Of a stretch of DNA of 64,000 nt, positions 6,648 to 63,556 are shown piece after piece. Under the pieces are notes generated by a model. It made no database searches. It was not told the DNA's origin and saw only the letters and a program-made list of their open reading frames with translations. The position numbers were made by a program, and so were the translations under genes. The DNA is from Schmidtea polychroa. Its lineage: Eukaryota. Location: NCBI GenBank assembly GCA_044892525.1, contig CM097888.1:31062001-31126000 (forward strand). The letters are read 5' to 3'. Positions within the stretch are counted from its first letter, which is position 1. The number at the start of each line of letters is the position of its first letter.

Positions 6648-8754
6648 TGTTCTTGAAAAATACTAAAAATATGCGAAATGGTTAAATTACCCCGATACAA
6701 TAATTAAGTTTCGCAAGGTCCCCCAAAAAATCTCTACTAAACCAATTCCCCTGGTCGGTTTATTTACCCCGCGAATTCCATACTATTAAATATTCGCCAA
6801 TTCTTCTGGATTTAAATGAGTAGGGACAGAGTCTCGATTGAGAAACAATTGAATAACCACACCTTTCTCCCGCATTATCCAAACCTAACTGTCGATTTGA
6901 AGTTAATTATTTAAATTTATTTTATCGACGGTGAATAATTGTGAACTTTACAAGGTTATCATTAATTTTCTTATTATTTCCTTTGCGGAAAAATCTTATT
7001 CAAATTTAAATGACGTCCAATTCAAATGCATAAAAGTTTCTATGCTTTACTATTCGACATTTGAGCAAGGAGATGTTAAAAAATAAAAATCAATTTAGTT
7101 AAAAATAATTAGGAAAATATCAGAAGATTTGTTATAAATTTATTTATTATAAATTCGTTTATGATAAATTTAATATAATTATAATATACACCTAATATAC
7201 AGATTTCGACTGGCTTGTTTACATTGCTTATTTAGATCAAATAAAAAAAAATATCTTCCGATGTGTCGCCTGAATTTGTGTAGAAATCCGGACTTATTTT
7301 TCTCCCGCTTATCGCCATTCGAAACGATTGGTTGCGGACGTTTCTGTCCGGGAATTTTCTCTAAACCGGAGTTATCGGTGGCTGATTTACCATAGGTTGT
7401 GTACTGAGTGTGAAGGTATAATGTGCAAATAATTCAACTTCGTGGTTATCCCTGTAATTAACTGTCGACTTCCCCGCAGAACATCCATCATTCACTCATT
7501 AAAGTACAGGTGAATTACGTAACCGGCGTAGTCGCAATTTATGCACACTGGCTGGATGAGTGGCGGAAAATTATGGGGATTCTTACTACGTGTGGGACGG
7601 GTGTGTTGCTGCTGTATTTCTGTTTATAGGTGTTTTAGATTTTTGGATTTCGCCGATGCCTCTTCACCAGCTGGGTTAATTAGCGAAAATTGTTTATGTG
7701 AAATGCCGAAATCTCGTTAATTCATCAGGTGTAGCTCTCGTTCTATGTTTGGCCGATTTTGATTCTTAGCGTTATCAGATGGGAGGCCCTGCCAAATATT
7801 GACAAGTCGATTGAAACTGGTAAGGTTTTTGTTTATCATATTATCTTGATATTACTACAGAGTTTACGATGGAAAGTATAGATAACCCGGCGGCAAGACT
7901 TCTCTACTAGTTGGCGGTTAAACCCGTTAAAGTACAACTCTATAGAAACCAGACAAGTAGAAGGTCAATCTCGATGGTTTAATCGCTTCTGTGAAAGGTA
8001 TTTCTTGACTATCGAATGCCTGAAGGGTATGAAATTCAATATCTCCTCGCGATGTCTCTCCTATTTCACGATGGCAATTTGCTTTTACCTACAAAAGATA
8101 CAGATGGGTCATTGCCATCACCGAGCCAGAGAACCTATCGTTTCCACATATTATGTCAGATTTTATCCACACCCAACTACCCACTACGCTATCACTATAA
8201 TCAATCATACAGCAAGACGATCTGAGCCCTATCGATGCGAGCATCAACAGTTCCAGACGTCCTCCCAGCTAATCAATCATCATCAATAAGTAAATCGAAG
8301 TAATAATAATAAAATTTATATTTATAATATTAATAAAACCTAGACTATTCCGTCACGGTTACTGTACTACCGCTACCTTATAATAGATATCCACTTGCTC
8401 TGCTGAAAATGCCGAAACCTCTATTACACTTCTCTAGTCACAAAATCCAACTATCCCGACTAGTTCTATTCCATCTTATCCGATCCTCTCCGGCTACATC
8501 TCGACTGGCTAAATATTTCTTCTGCTCCCTTCCTCCGGGTCATAATCCGGTTACTCAACCAAGTTCGTGAATACAAGTGTCATTCTCCCTCACGCTACCC
8601 TGCATACACATTCCATCGGCTCATCAGCACTTCATGAATCTCCGGATACTGCTATATAAATTTCTTCAAAATCTGTCTATACAACCATCCGTTCGTTGCT
8701 GTCATTAACAAACGCTATTGATAAGGTTTTTGTATAACATAAGGCGGTTTATAA

Positions 8755-9164
8755 TGTGGTTAAATTCAGCGCGCCGTCAAAAGACTCTCTCCGAATTATT
8801 CCCCGAAAATCCTTCTGTGAATTATTCCCCGTAAATTACTTCTTAAAATCCAAAAGAAACACAATTCAGCGACAATACGTTTATTAACAATTAAATATTT
8901 TAACAATTATATTTGAATCGATACATTATCAATTTCCAACATTAAACTTAAGAAAAAACCCGATCGTATGAGTCGCCGCGGTGGCAACCATTAAAACAAA
9001 CATCAGAATAATAATATTACAAATATTTTAACATTTTAATTCCAACTTTCTCATAATGCTCCCTTGCACTCTACAACACAAAATATTAAACCTTTCAACA
9101 TTCGAACTATAATCAGTTTTAAAACATTTAATTATAACAAACTTAAATGACCCTTTTACTCACA
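8755..9164 (-). repeat. 3' LTR (410 bp)
   Basis: Direct repeat of 10481-10890 with 2 substitutions. Confidence 0.95.
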
Positions 9165-9196
9165 TCCCCCCGAGTTTGTTAAGTAAGCACACACTC

Positions 9197-9925
9197 TTAT
9201 TCGTTGCATGCTCGTATATTTTTAACATGCATACATACCCCATCAACAGAAACATTCCATGCCGAATTTACATCTGTTACCACACCTTCTCTCCACTCAT
9301 CCATGCAAGTCGCATCACCACCCTTTACATGAACGACATCACCAACTCGAAACTTTCCACTCGTTTCATTGTCCCGATCTCTTTCAACATTTTCGTCATT
9401 CAACTCGTATGCATATATGGAAGCAAATGGCACGGAGCATTCATCTTGACCCTCGCGCGGCGACGCATTATACCAAAACAGCATTTCTTCCACAGTTCCC
9501 CGCGTTCGAGCCACCATCCTTTTTATTGTCCTGTGGTTACGTTCCACAATTCCATTTCCAGAAGATTCATACGCACATCTATACATATGCTTTACTTTCC
9601 ATTCATCACAAAATTTTCTCAATGCATCGCTTTTAAACGCTCCTCCATTATCACTAAGTAATTCTCTGCAAAACCCTCTTTCGAACATGGTCTTTCTTAT
9701 CGCATTCAACACGCTTCGTACACTTTCATCTTTCAACTCATGCCATATTGCATACCTCCCGGGTCCGCAGTCCACTACCGACAAATACTTCTTTCCCTCC
9801 AAATGCACAACATCCACTGCTATTCTGACCCACGTGCCACCCACGCTCAACTCACCTTTCGGCATTCTACACGCATGCGGATCAACGGTAGCACACTTAA
9901 AACAATTTCTCACGACCGCCTCCAC
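9197..9925 (-). CDS. Retroviral-type integrase core (rve); N-terminal His pair of the HHCC finger deleted
   Basis: CFKC, RIAVDVVHL, LLSDNGGAF, SSGNGIVERNHRTIK give the D-D-E triad. Confidence 0.9.
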   Translation of the reverse strand: MEAVVRNCFKCATVDPHACRMPKGELSVGGTWVRIAVDVVHLEGKKYLSVVDCGPGRYAIWHELKDESVRSVLNAIRKTMFERGFCRELLSDNGGAFKSDALRKFCDEWKVKHMYRCAYESSGNGIVERNHRTIKRMVARTRGTVEEMLFWYNASPREGQDECSVPFASIYAYELNDENVERDRDNETSGKFRVGDVVHVKGGDATCMDEWREGVVTDVNSAWNVSVDGVCMHVKNIRACNE

Positions 9926-10337
9926 GTCCTTTCGATTCTATTCCCGCGCTCTTCACTAATCTCTTCAAGTTTATGGCATACAAATCTACCTTATCACTCA
10001 CACATTTCAAGTTGACAAACATTTCATACGCTGTATATTTGTTTATGCCAAATGTTTTACGCAACGCCGATTCCACACCCCCTTTCACGTCTCGTTCTTC
10101 CTCAGACATATTCATATACACGCTGAAGGCCGAACCATCCAACAATAGCGGCATAATGCGTCTCGTGTCTTTAATGCCTTGCACATCGCACACCATTCTA
10201 ACTCGTTCCAACCATTCCTCAACATCCAAACTCCCATCATACTTCGTCACAACATTTAACACCCTTATAGACGACTTCACCGCGTCTTCATCCCGAATCC
10301 CCCCTTCATTCATTCCACTTTTTACTTTACTTGTCAT
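9897..10337 (-). CDS. Gypsy gag N-terminal fragment, running out of frame into the integrase at the deletion junction
   Basis: LDVEEWLERVRMVC..MPLLLDGSAFSVY..ALRKTF resembles retrotransposon gag; junction near 9930. Confidence 0.75.
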   Translation of the reverse strand: MTSKVKSGMNEGGIRDEDAVKSSIRVLNVVTKYDGSLDVEEWLERVRMVCDVQGIKDTRRIMPLLLDGSAFSVYMNMSEEERDVKGGVESALRKTFGINKYTAYEMFVNLKCVSDKVDLYAINLKRLVKSAGIESKGRGGGREKLF

Positions 10338-10468
10338 TTCAAAACAATTTATTTTAAAAATCGAATTTTTAAATTGTTTTTAATAATTAAATGTTCTCAA
10401 TACTTTTTACAAATCAAACTATTGAAAAGCTATATTATGTATCATTCAAAGTACAAAAAAAATATCTT

Positions 10469-10480
10469 GCCCGGATAGCT
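10469..10480 (-). promoter_or_regulatory. Primer-binding-site position complementary to nt 1-12 of tRNA-Lys(UUU)
   Basis: The + strand reads GCCCGGATAGCT directly abutting the 5' LTR, identical to the 5' end of animal tRNA-Lys(UUU). No canonical TGG-type PBS is present. Confidence 0.65.
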
Positions 10481-10890
10481 TGTGGTTAAATTCAGCGCGC
10501 CGTCAAAAGACTCTCTCCGAATTATTCCCCGAAAATCCTTCTGTGAATTATTCCCCGTAAATTACTTCTTAAAATCCAAAAGAAACACAATTCAGCGACA
10601 ATACGTTTATTAACAATTAAATATTTTAACAATTATATTTGAATCGATACATTATCAATTTCCAACATTAAACTTAAGAAAGAACCCGATCGTATGAGTC
10701 GCCGCGGTGGCAACCATTAAAACAAACATCAGAATAATAATATTACAAATATTTTAACATTTTAATTCCAACTTTCTCATAATGCTCCCTTGCACTCTAC
10801 AACACAAAATATTAAACCTTTCAACATTCGAACTATAATCAGTTTTAAAACATTTAATTATAACAAACTTAAATTACCCTTTTACTCACA
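10481..10890 (-). repeat. 5' LTR (410 bp)
   Basis: Direct repeat of 8755-9164. Confidence 0.95.
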
Positions 10891-11989
10891 TATAACAACT
10901 CATATATTCAAATAAACTTTTCATACAAATTGAACTAATCTGGATCATGTATTCCAATAAAGTCTTCATAATCATATCATTCCAAACAGTATCATTGAAA
11001 CAAAATCACCCTATTGGCATAATCAAATCATTTCTAGTTAATACAATCGACACCGTGAATTACTAAATCAATAAAAAATATGATCGAAATGAATTACCAT
11101 ATTGGTATAACTAAATTACTTTTAATTAAAATGATTGAAAGAATAAAGAACAAGCTTATACTCATGTTATAATTACAAATTTAAAATGAATTAAAAAGGT
11201 GCTTGTAGAATTCATACGTTAACATCTAAATCAACCAAATAAATCTTACATTGTTACTAGTTAAGAATTGAATTGGTCGTCTATATCGAGTTAATGGCTG
11301 TAAGTCGTCCCGTGGATAATAGTCCTGAATTATAATTTTAATACCTGAGAGAATAAGCCGCTCGGTTTTCTTATATACTGGATTCTGTCCAATCAGAATC
11401 CAGTGCGGTTGTATAATTTTATTTTTATTCATTTTTTCTCTTTTATTCTTTTCTTATGTTTTTCTTTATTATTTTTAGCGATTTTATTAGTAAGTAATTT
11501 TTCTATTCCTATTTTCCTTTCTTTGGTTGATTTTTGAGTTATTTTATCGCGTTTTCTCACTTATTTGCATTTCCTTAATTATTATTACTAATTTTGGGTT
11601 GGATATTATTATTTTAATTTTTCTTGCTATCTCTTTCTATTATTTTTAATATTTTTCTATTATTTTCCTTCTTAGGTAATTGTTTTGGATTTTTTATTAA
11701 ATTTTTCGCTATTATTTTTCTATTCTTCCTTTCTCCTTGGCTAATTCCCTCCCCTAATTCTTATTCCGTTATTTGTCTGGACCTTTATATTTATTGAAAA
11801 TCAGCCCAACAAATCACTCCGGGGCCCGTTAAAATTGCAATTTATAATTCTAGAGCAAAATTAAAAAAAAATAATACAAAATCACGTGTCGAGTTCACAC
11901 ACTACCATTCAAACATATGTCATACACACACAAAAGTTAAAAGATAAAAATTATATTGATAGTTAAAGGGAAAATATAAGACAAGCAGA

Positions 11990-26369: not shown

Positions 26370-29300
26370 TGTTGTGAAGTTTAAAGTTATATACTTATAT
26401 ATTTATATAATTATTTTGAAGGCATCCAATCCCTGGAACCCCGGAATTTTTTTTTCCGAAATCCCGGGATTAAGATTGTCAGAATACCGGGATTCGGTAC
26501 CAATTTTTAATTCATTTTATTTGCATAATGCGTAGCCAATTCGGTTTCATCCCCTGAGTTATTTTTAAATTCTTCTTTTATCAGTTGCCGTATATTACAT
26601 AACATGCGCACTAGAAAGAGTATTAATGAACGCCAACGCAATACAACCTCGATAAATATGTTATTATGCATGCTCATTTTAATGAATAATTTCTATATTT
26701 ATTTTTGGCAAATGAGAATGAAACTTCCTAAATGAATGACATGAGAGTGAAAAATGGACATCACTACTCTTGAATACACCTAAATCCGAAATATAAAAGT
26801 TTCTATAATACATTTTGGTGTGTGCATCAGTGGGTTACTAACCATTTATGAAAGTGAAGTTTAATATTTATTCATTTATTCAATTTTTTGGAGAAAGGGC
26901 ATGTAAAAATTTAATCAATTTGACAGGAAGAATATTATTTCATTGCTTTTCCTTCTAATCAGCAAGGAACAGCCATGTCTGAAAAAAACATCCAAAATTT
27001 TGCAGAATGTAGCCAAAATTTGATTGAAAAAACTCGAGTGTGGGAATATATTTTACGTGCTAAATCAGGCGAGTCTGGCAAGTGTAAAAATGTCATAAAA
27101 TTTTGAAAATGACGGGCAGATTGACAAGCGGCCTTCATAAGCACATCGCAAGTCACTCCATCGTGATAAATCAGGTCGAAAGACCAGCCTCTGACACTTT
27201 AGGAGTACGACCAGCAAAATGCAATGACCCACAAGCCTATAGGAGCAAAAAAATTATCACTAATTATCTTGTTGTTCATTACGATAGCTCTCTGGAAGCA
27301 GTATTATCCTGTATGACAGCCTCCGATGGATTACCATTCAGTTTTTTTATAACATCGGTGGAGGAACGCAAATCACTGTCGGCTCGTGGATTTGACGTAC
27401 GAAAATCAACTACTTTTATTCGCACCATGGTCATGAAGTATGGCCGAATGATACATCAAAAATACAAGCTTGAAGTCTCGGAAGAAATTCACTATCAGCT
27501 TTGACGAATGGATTTCATTCAAGCACCGTCGATATTTGAATCTAAATGTGCACATTCAAAATAAAATTTGGGATTCAGGATAGGTTCGAGTGCGTGAATC
27601 TAAGCCCACAGAAAGCCGCATCAAACTTATTGAAGGAAAGCTGGAGTTTTTCGGATTAAATTAACACTAAGGTATTGTATGCACCGTGATGGATGGTGCC
27701 GCTCCAATGGTAAAAGTGGGAAAATTACTTTCTTGTGAGCAATAAATATGTTTTGTACATGACAAACACATGGCGGTTTGTGGATTTCCTTTACACAAAA
27801 CCTGTTTCTACACCAATTATAGAGGTTGATGATAACGATGACAGCGATTCAGACAACGAAGGTGAATATGACGGATTTCAAATTGTTTGCAAAGAAGATG
27901 AGCCAGAACTTACAGATTAGCTTTATGTATTCATCGGTAAAGTACTGTCTGTTGCCAAGCTATTTCGTCGATATCCGACAAAAACGACATTCTTCAGAAA
28001 TACATCAAAGCAGAATTCGGAAAAGAAGTTCAGTTGATGATTGATGTAAAGATACGATGGAACAGTCTTCTTTCTATGCTGGATTATTTCATTGGAGTTA
28101 AAAACTGCATTTTAAAATCGTTCATTGATCCTGGTTCAAGTATTTCATTTGAAGAAGAATTAAGCATGATTCAAAATTTGGTAACAACACTTGAACCAGT
28201 AAAGTTAGCTGTGGAAGCACTTTGTCGTCGTGACGCAGCACTGCTGTCAGCTGACAAAATGATTTGATTCATGATAAATAATTTTGGCAGCCGTTCAGCT
28301 GAAGGAAACACTTTCACGTCGATTGAATCAACGGTGAACCAAAAAGGCAACCAAAATTATGCAGAATTGGAGTTGGATCCTATCCTAAATTTTGAATGTC
28401 TAAACAAAGCGAAAAGTGTTTCTATGGTTACTGGTCTGACAAAGCCATCTGATCGCAATTAGTCATTTGAATCCGAATCGGACAGTGAGGCAGCTGAAGG
28501 AGAAGTCGAATCACAGTTGTCCATGCAGGAAAAGCTCCCCAGAGCATCAATAAGGAAATGAATTCCAAAATAATTTCCAAATCACGAACAGCGAAAGAGG
28601 ATATTTCAAGATGGAAGCTAAATGAATAAATAAACAAAAAAGACTTAATTTGAGTTCATCTGTTTGTACCTAATTTCATTTATTATTGTTTTAAACAGTG
28701 TTTTATTTATGAATTAAAAAATTTGTGTAAACATGTGGTTATTTAAATTTTGGGAAAAAATTTTGAAATGTTGCCAAAAGATTCAATACCGAAATCCCGG
28801 TTCTGGAAAAATGGTCCGGTACTAGATGCCTTAATTATGTTTATGTATTTATACTGATATTTATGTGTTACAAGAAATTTGTGATAACCCAGCAGTCTCC
28901 TTTAAAACTTACTTTGGGACTTCTGGGGTGATTGTATGTAGAGTATATAAAAATAAATTTTATAATAATTAGAACAAATATTTACTTTAACTTAAAATAC
29001 GAAAATAAACTAAATTATGTTATTAAACTTTTATTCAACAAAAAGATCAAAAAACTTTAATCACCTAGGGTTCCTTCTAAATTGTGCTTTGGTTATTTTT
29101 CAGGGTTAGGTTCATGAAACGTTGGAATGTTGCAGCTGCATTCCGCAAACCGAAAGGTATTCTGTTATATTCGAACAAACCAATTGGTGTTATGATAGCT
29201 GTCTTTTATGTCTTTCCTAATTGTAATTCGGTGATAGGTCTTTTGAAGGGCTATTTTTGGCAGGGGGTAGTTGTCTGCTTCTGTGATCTTATCTAGCATG

Positions 29301-31622
29301 CTGTAGTCGCCACAAGCTTTCCATTCCCCGTTCGCCTTTTGTTTGAGCATTAGGGTGGAAGATAATTCTGAGTTTGAATGTTTTACTATTTTGTTGTCGA
29401 GTAATTCTTTGAAAATTTCTTTAGTGTACTGGGTTCCCCAATGTTATGATTGAGTGTTCGGTCGGGTTGTCCGAATTCTAGTTGAATGTTACTGGTTCGG
29501 TTAATTTATTAAAATTTTTTACTAGTCGAGTTATTGCGGGACCGTGATTGGCTGCTCTGTTTTTATTGGTTGAGGATTGTTTGGATTACTCCAATGTCAA
29601 TTTGAGGGTAGTAATTTGTTGTTGATTGTTTTCGTTTTTGTGATGGGGTTTTCAACTAAATCTGTATTTCTGCAGTCTACTTGTAAGTTATAGTGTGATA
29701 AGAAATCAGCACCGATTATTGATTGTTGTACTGCGGTTAGAGTAAACGACCAGGTGTACTCTTCGTGGTTAATTGTTATAGTCATTATATGTTGTCCGAA
29801 TGTACTTATGTTGTTACCGTTATCTGCGGTGAGTTTGTTATTTGTTGTTTTGAGGTTTTTGAACATTTTGTGGGGTAATATGGAGACCAGTGTCAATCAG
29901 AAAATTATTGTTTTGTGATTGCACCATGAACTTTTTATTTTTGTCGCCAAATGTCGGTGCGATTAATGGCGACTTCATCAGTTTTCCTGTGTTTTGTAGT
30001 TGCACGGGTTGTTGCATTTGTATGCTTTATTCCCGAACTTTGGTGGTAGTAGGAAATTTCATCTTTATTTTTGTCTGTGATGTTAAATGAGGCTTTGTGT
30101 TTTCGGTTTCGTGAATCTGACTGATTTCTGTTATAACGGTTTTGTGAAAGATTGTAGTTTTGTCTTAAGCATTTTCCTTTTATTTCGGCGAGTTCACGTT
30201 TAATTTGTTTGTTTCAATTATTACTTCATCGAATTTGCTGATCAGTGTGTTAATGAGGTTGGTTGTGATTTCGATTGTTTCAAGATTTTTGTTCTTATTG
30301 TTTGGTGGTTAGTCGTTGTGGTATGATTGGTTTTTGTACTGATTTTGGGTGCTGTAGATTATGGGGTTAATTTCTTCATTGATTTGATTTGGTATGTCCG
30401 CTAATGTTTGATGTCTGCGGCTAAGATTAATCGTATTTCTTGTGGTATAGCGCGTATGAATAATACTTTAATTAGCTTGTTTAATCCTGAACTGGTGATG
30501 TTTGGTTGTAGTTGTTCCAGTTTGTGCTTTAGTTGTCTGAGGAAATCGGCATGTTAGTTGTCCCCTATTTGTGTGTTGTTTAAGCAGGACTCCAGCATTT
30601 GTCCTTTATTTATTTTATTTTTTGATATTAGTATGTGACAGTTTGTTGTATGGGTTCTCACTTTTTGAGATTTCGTTTATTTGGTCTGCAATTTCGTTGA
30701 GTTTGTTGGGGAGAGCTGCAATTATGTTTGAACACAGGGCTTTTGTTGATTTTACGCCTGATAGTGTTAAAGCTAGTTTTGCGAAGTCTAGCCATTTTTG
30801 AGGCGTTCCATTTTCATTGATGAAATAAGTATGGATATTCGGTTTGGGTTCATAATTGAATTTATAGAAAATGGGTTAGTTAATGAATTGAACTGGCGGT
30901 TGGTGTTGTCATTCGTTAATGGAATATTTTCTTCACTTATGTTTGTGAATCCATTGGATATTTGGTTATCTTCTTGCCAAAATCGGTTGTTTGTGTTTGT
31001 TTGCATTGATTGGTGATGTTTGTTTGCATTTTAAAAAGAATTGTTTTAATCAAGGATATGGCTTACTGTGTTCAGCCTAAAGTGCTACTATTCTTTATAC
31101 ATCTACATTAGGTATGCTAAAAGCGTTAGTGTTTTTACGAGTGTATTTTGTATATTTTTGCTCCTGACACCAGTTATGTTGTAAAGTTTAAAGTTATACT
31201 TATATGTTTATATAATTATGTTTATGTATTTATGCTGACACTTATGTGTTACCAGAAATTTGTGAGAACACAGCAGAATCTCATTTAAAACTTGTTTTGG
31301 AATTGCTGGGTGCTTGTGTATGTAGAGTATATAAAAATAAATTTTATAATAGAACAATTAGAACAATTAGAACAAATATTTACTTTAACTTAAAATACGA
31401 AAATAAACTAAATTATGTTATTAAACTTTTATTCAACATAAAGATCAAGAAGATTTAATCACTTAGGGTTCCTTCTAATACGAATCCAACAAAAATAAAA
31501 CCCGAATATGTTCCAATTTCAATCTTTCAATCTTCGCTATTTATTGTTTAGTTTTTGGTTTATTTCTAGTATCTTCTTTCTGTGATAATAAAATATATAA
31601 AATTATTATTGTTATATTAACA
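26370..31622 (-). mobile_element. Decayed Gypsy retrotransposon (CsRn1-like gag), 3' LTR split by a hAT insertion and partly deleted
   Basis: 5' LTR 31177-31622; 3' LTR 26370-26417 plus 28834-29080. PBS TGGTGTCAGGAG (tRNA-Leu type, 31172-31161). Gag ..KFGNKAYKCNNPC, protease FLIDTG, RT ACGDYSMLDKITEADNYPLP. Probable TSD ATTAT, in low-complexity context. Confidence 0.85.
26418..28833 (+). mobile_element. hAT transposon with BED-finger transposase pseudogene
   Basis: TIRs (G/T)AAGGCATC; 8-bp TSD ATTATTTT/ATTATGTT; VWEYI..KCKNCHKILK..TSGLHKHI BED finger; SLSFDEW, RWNSLLSML, LEPVKLAVEALCR. Confidence 0.85.
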
Positions 31623-61346: not shown

Positions 61347-63556
61347 CTCATTGCTGGCCGCCTACGTAGTAATACCTTATTTTTATTCAAAATCCAGCAG
61401 CCGCTGACGTATTAATACGTTTTTTGTTATACCAGTTTGTTTAATTGTCAGTCAGCCTGTCGTTTTATTTTAAGTAGTTTATTTTGCACTAATTAAAAAA
61501 ATATAAATTAATTAATTATTTAAGCTGCTTTATAATGGACAACGAGGATTTTGAGTGTAATAATATGTGTAATGACACTAATGAGTTATATGCTGATATA
61601 TTGTCTGGGGATGAAAATAATACAGATGAAAGCGACGATAAGGACTTTCCAATTAACATTAAAAGAAAAGTTTTACCTATTGTAAGTAATTCTGAGACTA
61701 GCAATTACGATGATATAAAATTTGAGAATGAAGAAAATAATTCAACCAAGTACTGGTCCGAAAATGATGGTGATATTAATATAAATTTATTTTTGGGAAA
61801 TGATTAGTTAAAGTGTTTCCAAGAAATTCAGAAAATATATCAGATGTAAGAGATTTATTTATTGACGATGATTTTTTAAAATTATTAACAAATGAAACAA
61901 ACAGATATCATATGCAAAATATTCACAAATATAAATTTGTGAAAAAGGTTAAACAATGGAAAGATACTACAATATCTGAAATGAAAAAATTCCTTGGTTT
62001 GAACATTTTAATGGGACAAGTAAGGAAAAACAGTATAAACGATTATTGGTCTACTGATCTACAGATTGAAACACCAATTTCTGGTAAAGTCATGCCTCGA
62101 AATCGGTTCAGGCAAATATTACAATCGTTACATTTTTGTAATAATGATGAAATGCCTGAAAACGCAGATCGACTTTTTAAAATTGAACCAGTAGTAGAAT
62201 ATTTTTTAAATAAATTTTATACAGTTTATAAACCAAAACAAAATCTTTCTTTGGATGAGGCAACCATACCCTACAGAGGCCGGATAATTTTCCGTGTTTA
62301 CAACCCAGGAAAGATTAATAAATATGGCATGCTTGTCAGAATGCTTTGCGAATCTAAAAGTGGATACATAACTAGCTTTAAATTCTATAGCGGTAGTGGA
62401 CAAAAGTTGCAAAATCTCAAAAACATTCTCTTAGATAAATATGAAAATATTTGACACCATGTTTACATGGATAACTATTACAATAGTGTTGAATTAGCGG
62501 AGCAGTTACTCTTCAAGAAGATAAGAATTTGTGGTACAATAAGAGAAAATCGCGGGTTACCTCAAGATATAAGAAAAATTAAGTTAAGAAGAGGTCAGCA
62601 TGTTTTCCGTAGAAAAAATGATATTTTAATTCATGTATGGAAAGATAAAATATATATCAGAATGATTTCGACAATACACCAGGCAAGACTAGTAGAAACC
62701 GGTAAAATAAATCGAAAAACTGGTGAAATGATAAGAAAGCCAGAAAGTATTATAGATTACAATATCCATATGAGTGGTGTTGATTTGGCTGATCAATACC
62801 TGTCTTATAATCCGATTATAAGAAAAAGTATCAAATGGACAAAAAAGGCTTTCATGTTTATGTTGAATTGTGCATTATTTAATTCATTTGTGGTATATAA
62901 GAAACTGAATCCAGCTAAAAAAATCAAGTTTACCTCATATTTACTACAAATTGCTAAAGATTGGATCGAAAATCAAGATAGTGTTTGTTCACAAATTTCT
63001 TAGGGTCCATCAAAAAGAGCCTCTTGTAAAGATCCACGAAATATACTTTCAGGAGATATAAAAATCCATAGTCTTGTGAAACTTCGTAGTTCTGGGGAGA
63101 AAAGGTTTCCTCAGAAACGTTGCAAAGTATGCAAAAACAATGGCAAAAAGAAAGAAACCTGGCTTCATGTGCGGACATTGTGAGATTCCTTTATGCGTTG
63201 AAAATGTTTTGAGGACTACCATATTAAAAGAAATTACTAGAAATTCAATTTTCAAATTTGGTATTTTTTTTGTTCGAACAACTTTACTAATTATTTGGTT
63301 TATTCGTTTATTATAGTTTTATTACAATAAAGTTGTTAATTATTTCTTTACCTCATATTATTTTGTTTATAGCTTTATCATTTTTGGAAATTTAAAAAAT
63401 TAATGCTATTAATTTAAGCCCTAGATGTGATAAAAAAAACTATAGAGGCTCTTCCCTCTACATTGCGCCGTACATTAGCGGTATTCAACGATCACTATGT
63501 AAACAAGGCGCGGCTTAACACCGGTTGGAGTAAAATTATTAGCGGCCAGTAATGAG
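61347..63556 (+). mobile_element. Near-full-length piggyBac (PGBD4-like); transposase pseudogene 61535-63240
   Basis: 15-bp TIR CTCATT(G/A)CTGGCCGC; TTAA on the right; catalytic SLDEATI, YMDNYY, GVDLADQ; C-terminal CKVC..CGHC..LC. Nonsense codons at 62452 and 63001 plus frameshifts. Confidence 0.95.

Follow-up and report, generated by a model that had tools for sequence, protein, structure and literature searches.

Compact LTR retrotransposons of Schmidtea polychroa and their relatives carry a putative primer-binding site for the 5′ end of host tRNAs

The choice of primer belongs to the textbook features of retroelements. Three types of primer are on record for reverse-transcribing long terminal repeat (LTR) retrotransposons, namely a whole tRNA, half of a tRNA that is cleaved in its anticodon stem, and the element itself (2019 survey PMC6317226, in the sections at hand), and neither PMC8742986 nor the available part of PMC10886601 adds a further type. 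In canonical priming, which is used by Retroviridae, most Metaviridae and Belpaoviridae, the 3′ CCA end of a host tRNA pairs with a primer-binding site (PBS) that starts with TGG and adjoins the 5′ LTR. Half-tRNA priming has been described for copia, Ty5, Osser, Bryco, Bianca and fungal Helenus, and the accessible parts of both surveys report its sites, which complement the anticodon stem-loop, for Ty1/copia lineages only (PMC6317226, PMC10886601). In the self-priming elements Tf1 and Tj1 the 5′-terminal stretch of the RNA pairs beside the 5′ LTR, and a cut is required to free the primer, with RNase H as the cutter in Tf1 (PMC4600332, in part). Here we analyzed a stretch of 64,000 nucleotides of the Schmidtea polychroa genome (positions 31,062,001 to 31,126,000 of contig CM097888.1, in the following the window), which harbors on its minus strand a deletion derivative of an LTR retrotransposon with a candidate PBS for the 5′ end of host tRNA-Lys(UUU). 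The feature is real throughout the lineage to which this element belongs and, judged from sequence, is a new form of tRNA-fragment priming, for which we propose a mechanism.

The candidate PBS occupies positions 10469 to 10480 and reads GCCCGGATAGCT on the plus strand and AGCTATCCGGGC on the minus strand, the strand of the element. It follows without any spacer on the CA that terminates the 5′ LTR, and TGG is absent. The host gene for tRNA-Lys(TTT) starts with GCCCGGATAGCTCAG according to ARAGORN, and AGCTATCCGGGC is the exact complement (12/12) of nucleotides 1–12 of tRNA-Lys(UUU); the match ends at C13 of the tRNA, which would oppose the last A of the LTR. Both findings bear out a sequence-only reading of the window, which had claimed a 12-mer directly after the 5′ LTR, without TGG, and its complementarity to the 5′ end of this tRNA. 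The 12-mer is unique in the window even with up to two mismatches, and shuffled versions of the window gave a mean of 0.89 matches at two mismatches. As a loose match somewhere in 64 kb is ordinary, the weight of the finding rests on position and exactness, and the chance of exactly this 12-mer at one fixed place is about 6e-9 at the composition of the element. Genome-wide the 12-mer has 1344 exact matches compared with 0 for the reversed control. The bulk of them (1242) run on with CAG like the tRNA gene, as checked with ARAGORN for three such loci, and 94 of the remaining 102 have CA immediately before them on the element strand. The first 30 genome places listed lie mostly in other LTR families with unrelated flanks. 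We judge it very probable that the 12-mer binds nucleotides 1–12 of the tRNA and primes there.

The tRNA genes of this host are organized in very large single-isotype tandem arrays. The Lys(TTT) genes have a 424-bp period with 1242 matches of the 15-mer, the Phe(GAA) genes a period of 255 bp and the Lys(CTT) genes one of about 794 bp; the array loci are C4:76.66-77.05 Mb (L081-L092), C1:34.2 Mb (L223) and C2:142.9-144.6 Mb (L218-L222).

Three LTR families of this genome, whose LTRs are unrelated, carry sites for two different host tRNAs (junctions were counted by eye in sequence listings). For family A, the family of the window element, 20 fetched loci provide 21 junctions; the Lys(UUU) site is exact at 18 of them, two with identical flanks carry one change, and one (L050) reads AGTTAGCCGGGC. 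The normal TGG site that the sequence-only reading had allowed for in full-length members was not found there; they show the same 12-mer. Family C, with an LTR of 91 bp and a Pol about 33% identical to that of family A, also has the Lys(UUU) site, exact in 51 of 77 flank-anchored copies, with one change in 22 and two or three in 4. In family B (97-bp LTR, Pol with about 40% identity) 84 of 93 copies read AGCTATCGCGGC, eight have one change and one has two. This 12-mer is the complement of the 5′ end of host tRNA-Phe(GAA), which starts with GCCGCGATAGCT. Among 40 further stretches of the genome anchored on the Pol domain DUF7047, 12 include a gag start, and in 10 of these a Phe-type site with 0–2 mismatches lies 18–19 bases before it, nearly all being family B. 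Across the lineage, the site most often matches tRNA-Phe(GAA) and not tRNA-Lys, the partner named in the sequence-only reading.

Outside this genome, a protein search revealed 597 relatives, and a profile built from 37 Pols hit metagenome contigs at 64 loci. In 49 of them the junction can be seen upstream of gag, whereas in 14 the gag start lies off the contig (one of these, L153, ends in CA plus seven matching letters) and L185 starts inside the motif. Full 12-mers among the 49 are of the TTCGGC (13), CGCGGC (11), CACGGC (7), CTAGGC (7) and CCCGGC (4) types; the Lys(UUU), Lys(CUU) and AGCTACCTCGGC types are represented by a single junction apiece. One junction has GA in place of CA, and five loci include a second LTR, by which the position of the site right at the LTR end is confirmed. 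The information content of 51 non-redundant junctions is 1.6–2.0 bits at positions +10 to +12 and 0.1 at +8, and it falls to 0.3 or less from +13 to +15. The variable middle letters correspond to tRNA positions 4–6 in the acceptor stem, and for these three letters a tree of 54 rows, which leaves out 10 near-duplicates and 14 short rows, requires at least 16 changes. In the junction sequences, variation of the middle letters follows that of tRNA acceptor stems, and the conservation ends at tRNA position 1. The TTCGGC type, AGCTATTTCGGC, is the complement of the 5′ forward primer for human tRNA-Phe(GAA) printed in the part of PMC10505166 at hand. Four of the six Phe-like variants (CGC, CAC, TTC and CTA types) occur as 5′ ends of tRNA-Phe(GAA) in unrelated contigs, in a search whose pattern permitted 64 variants only; from tRNA 3′ ends tabulated in a supplement, the GCCGAAA type of tRNA-Phe alone could be confirmed. 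The conservation of the 12-mer, on which the sequence-only reading had made its interpretation depend, extends across family members and lineage.

As a side observation, tRNA-Phe genes of this host's kind, evenly spaced or clustered, are present in contigs of bacterial genome bins (L302-L304, L312, L313, L362, L363; L343-L346), which probably reflects eukaryotic contamination.

The described primer types were compared with the sites of nine elements of the lineage. Within the LTR the best self-priming partner reaches at most 8/12 Watson-Crick pairs and at most 10/12 counting G:U, so that the complement of the transcript's own 5′ end typical of Tf1/sushi elements is missing. This largely refutes Tf1-type self-priming with a merely accidental tRNA likeness, and pairing with the element's own 5′ end, as considered in the sequence-only reading, was not found. 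Length and position of the site do resemble Tf1/Tj1 (PMC4600332, in part), yet it tracks host tRNAs while LTRs of 91–433 bp are unrelated, and we regard this explanation as extremely improbable. A complement of a tRNA 3′ end is likewise missing at the LTR end; the longest stretches anywhere in the nine elements are 5–8 letters and scattered, and a hidden 3′-end site was rejected on these grounds. The sites of the lineage neither start with TGG nor complement a CCA end, nor is the complement of an anticodon stem-loop found, the match being to host tRNA nucleotides 1–12.

The same data bear on the idea that the 12-mer tethers the tRNA for packaging or dimerisation and that priming happens otherwise. 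Ty3 has a bipartite site, and auxiliary tRNA-binding boxes occur in Ty1 and Ty3. Against such a tether stand the missing 3′-end complement at the LTR end and the observation that four relatives with a partial site retain the letters closest to the LTR; furthermore, a tether would not be rewritten into the sequence of another tRNA. We therefore consider a tether quite improbable, albeit less so than self-priming.

The site of the lineage thus shares with canonical priming the use of a host tRNA and the position next to the 5′ LTR, but it addresses the other tRNA end, has no TGG and offers no free 3′-OH unless the tRNA is processed. With half-tRNA priming it would share a tRNA piece from the 5′ side instead of the CCA end as primer (PMC6317226, PMC10886601, both in part), whereas the site corresponds to nucleotides 1–12, that is acceptor strand and D stem, of Phe and Lys tRNAs. 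From this comparison the closest mechanistic precedent is probably the self-priming of Tf1 rather than copia/Ty5, to which the sequence-only reading had pointed. Self-priming of Tf1 was reportedly the subject of Levin 1995 and Levin 1996. Unlike in Tf1/sushi elements, the partner here is a host tRNA in trans and not the own transcript, no LTR complement was found in nine elements, and no chromodomain in 37 Pols.

How could a primer be released from the 5′ end of a tRNA? The site of the lineage complements host tRNA nucleotides 1–12 (Lys here, Phe in most relatives), and we see about even chances that the RNase H of the element cuts after U12 and so provides the primer. The site abuts the LTR end and matches nucleotides 1–12 and, as far as the sequences tell, no further. 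Folding predicts that the element RNA would displace the 3′ acceptor strand and open the D stem, which would give a 12-bp duplex. When the full tRNA gene sequence was co-folded with the 120 bases surrounding the LTR end, the cognate tRNA pairs at 12/12 bases and ranks first in 5/5 elements, with a small margin for the family-B copy L128 (-4.8 versus -3.8 kcal/mol). In analogy to Tf1, RNase H might then cleave the tRNA strand where the duplex ends, between U12 and C13, and the resulting 3′-OH would face the first base after the LTR. Finally, plus-strand synthesis may copy the 12-nucleotide primer and run off at G1, as two switched copies described below suggest; this proposed rewriting from the primer could explain why the site ends so sharply at G1. 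We favor the RNase H of the element because the primer of Tf1 is released from a 5′-terminal duplex adjoining the LTR, because the same boundary is seen for three tRNAs across divergent families and, as the weak point of this argument, because the four catalytic residues are invariant (all four acidic residues in 37/37 Pols).

Alternatively, the 12-nucleotide piece of the tRNA 5′ end could come from a host nuclease, which would either release it as a free short fragment for packaging or cut after the element RNA has opened the tRNA; this route would be a shorter cousin of copia/Ty5 half-tRNA priming. This possibility accounts just as well for all of the sequence evidence on the site. tRNase Z is able to cut RNA in a 12-bp guide duplex; a tRNase-Z-like cut is expected one base past the helix, however, and would leave C13 mispaired. 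One cut position in three tRNAs and many hosts is easier to reconcile with a ruler encoded by the element. Primers from half molecules cut in the anticodon stem are established (PMC6317226, PMC10886601, in part), but known tRNA fragments measure 16–35 nucleotides according to the accessible part of PMC7515703. On balance, a host nuclease seems unlikely, although it is the strongest competitor of the cut by the element's RNase H.

A cut would be dispensable altogether if reverse transcriptase (RT) started at the 2′-OH of U12 in the intact, opened tRNA, with a branched, retron-like RNA-DNA as product. This route needs no nuclease, it also predicts a site abutting the LTR end, and copying back to G1 could still account for the switched copies. 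On the other hand, the Pol model resembles ordinary retroviral protease-RT-RNase H folds with no extra domain seen. To our knowledge, 2′-OH priming is established for retrons and not for LTR elements, and we consider it improbable here.

Signs of a primer that is copied come from two young copies carrying the 5′ sequence of another host tRNA, as expected in this case. L128 is a family-B copy with two identical LTRs that is 99.1–99.3% identical to six siblings and has no detectable 5′ similarity to families A or C. In its site, two changes, which turn GC into CG, give the exact complement of Lys(UUU); the probability of this switch by chance is roughly 0.001–0.008, an estimate from which paired mutations are left out. 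The second copy is the family-A element L050, again with identical LTRs, whose best partner is Lys(CUU), with full pairing through one G:U. For human immunodeficiency virus (HIV) and murine leukemia virus (MLV) it is known that the site is copied from the primer and that rare priming by other tRNAs leaves a mark (PMC7472051, PMC6450007, both in part), and in the lineage the primer is probably copied into the site of the next generation in the same way as described there (PMC7472051).

Several observations weigh against this interpretation. Two of the 12 stretches with a gag start, both old copies, have no site within three mismatches, and in the metagenomes L156, L166, L170 and L190, from three families, keep just 10 of the 12 letters, the losses being at the end distal to the LTR. 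Positions -2 to +7 belonged to the pattern by which junctions were selected, so their conservation alone proves nothing. The sites in metagenome contigs were compared with tRNAs of other contigs and not with those of their own hosts, and the CCC and CCTC types are not among the tRNA matches listed (80 of >127 genome stretches plus 7 viral ones). The evidence for switching consists of two copies, and L050 carries one further change that pairs by G:U only. In addition, the 4 of 77 family-C copies with two or three changes match none of the three tRNAs tested, which indicates that decay gives rise to multiple changes as well. In Ty1 and Ty3 the sequence of the primer is not passed on (PMC7472051, in part). 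No LTR element can do without intact RNase H residues, and their presence is no demonstration that RNA:RNA is cut; the folding leaves aside tRNA modifications and tertiary structure, and primer, tRNA cut and strong-stop cDNA are predicted.

With respect to classification, the elements are compact (3.6–4.4 kb), and in their longer copies a gag containing two CCHC fingers overlaps a pol that encodes protease (PR), RT, DUF7047, RNase H (RH) and integrase (IN). Together with two TG...CA LTRs, a target duplication and a polypurine tract, this identifies them as LTR retrotransposons of the Ortervirales type. All of the 37 aligned Pols contain DUF7047, whereas none contains Pfam Peptidase_A17, a marker of the BEL-type RNase H region, the gypsy-type Pfam RT_RNaseH, a GPY/F motif or a chromodomain. 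The order PR-RT-RH-IN is shared by Metaviridae, Belpaoviridae and Troyka and hence not diagnostic, but it differs from Ty1/copia, where integrase precedes RT. In an RT tree the lineage forms one clade with a support of 96 in the Shimodaira-Hasegawa-like approximate likelihood ratio test, apart from a thin outgroup of one BEL protein on a very long branch and two related gypsy proteins, all of this genome. The RT-RNase H profile scored 54 bits for the BEL protein of this genome versus 34–37 bits for the two gypsy proteins. A structure model of Pol (mean predicted local distance difference test 81, predicted template modeling score 0.55) gave only generic retroviral and caulimoviral RT matches in fold searches (10–19% identity) and in a search of solved structures.

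Belpaoviridae resemble the lineage in domain order and TG...CA ends, but their site has 18 nucleotides and pairs with the 3′ end of tRNA-Arg/Gly, compared with 12 nucleotides and a 5′-type site here (PMC8742986). Troyka elements share small LTRs, the order PR-RT-RH-IN, the missing GPY/F motif, which some gypsy lineages lack as well, and a deep position off typical gypsy elements; they have CG...CG ends, 3-bp duplications and a CX2CX8-10HX4C finger, however, in contrast to TG...CA, 5 bp and CX2CX3-4HX4C in the lineage (PMC12440569, in the parts at hand). Based on ends, duplication length and zinc finger, Troyka was rejected as home of the element; the main text of PMC12440569, as far as available, mentions neither primer nor tRNA.

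A profile search yielded 1,615 representatives (50% clustering, E <1e-30, fragments included), among them a sister group with DUF7047 in which Gag and Pol are fused, reaching about 1,400 residues, and the integrase region is longer. The primer site of its members (P0304, P0309, P0316, P0317, P0321 and P0322) could show the origin of 5′-end priming. Viral contigs contained no relative of the lineage or of this sister group, and none of 14 motif matches in them had a Pol nearby.

The sequence-only reading had stated that such a priming mode was not known as described. In agreement with this, no description of a primer site for a tRNA 5′ end was found in the open literature, judged mostly by title and start of the abstract, nor anything on the six site variants or DUF7047; the portions of PMC4139406, PMC3118150, PMC12471100, PMC8220671 and PMC4402516 at hand contain no 5′-end site. 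It is rather unlikely that the site has already been described somewhere, while the elements themselves may well be catalogued in Repbase or subscription sources under gypsy or BEL names. At least one recent survey, in its accessible part, searches just the last 12 tRNA bases for a PBS (PMC13524379), and a site for the 5′ end of the tRNA explains why elements of this kind would be scored as having no PBS.

A site for tRNA nucleotides 1–12 throughout a lineage would add a fourth primer class. It implies a new cut at a defined place in tRNA-Phe and tRNA-Lys, and it raises the biochemical question of whether the RNase H of RT is able to cleave host RNA that a guide holds in place. If true, this would be an RNA-guided tRNA cutter within a retroelement and possibly a bridge between tRNA priming and the self-priming of Tf1; besides 3′ fragments, 5′ tRNA fragments would become candidate regulators of these elements. 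Our most far-reaching proposal combines an unnamed, deep DUF7047 LTR lineage apart from gypsy, BEL and Troyka with this fourth class, in which element RNA would guide the opening of a host tRNA from its 5′ end and the element's own RT would clip the 12-nucleotide primer and later copy it. As a whole this is tentative, and we rate it somewhat on the doubtful side.

The window element itself (8755-10890, minus strand) measures 2,136 bp and derives from a 4.4-kb element. Its 5′ LTR (10481..10890) and 3′ LTR (8755..9164) are 410 bp each, have TG...CA ends and differ at 2 positions. The 5′ part of gag (9938..10337, ATG at 10337) is truncated by an internal deletion of 2.3 kb, whose joint (9923..9937) is an imperfect 15-letter word common to both sides. 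An integrase remnant with rve core and C-terminal domain follows (9197..9937), then the polypurine tract GGGGGGA (9165..9171) preceding the 3′ LTR; all these features lie on the minus strand. The deletion removed the last part of gag together with protease, RT and RNase H, and the copy, being without RT, would depend on full-length copies. It is flanked by the 5-bp target-site duplication TATAA (plus strand, 8750..8754 and 10891..10895); among the nine elements this duplication is exact in six, has one mismatch in two and is missing in one.

Two further loci deserve mention. L037 (C3:92.24-92.25 Mb) has two family-A junctions 4,027 bp apart, which fits tandem elements with one common LTR, and L032 contains at 2000-2006 in the gag-pol overlap the heptamer GGGAAAC, followed by a GC-rich stretch, which resembles a -1 ribosomal frameshift site. 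Elsewhere in the window, a 268-bp direct repeat with 86% identity (28832-29080 and 31213-31478) has its copies 2.4 kb apart with no open reading frame of 120 residues between them, possibly an old duplication or a decayed element. Finally, a DDE_Tnp_1_7 transposase is encoded on the plus strand at 61804-63003, where one in-frame stop divides it into two consecutive frames.
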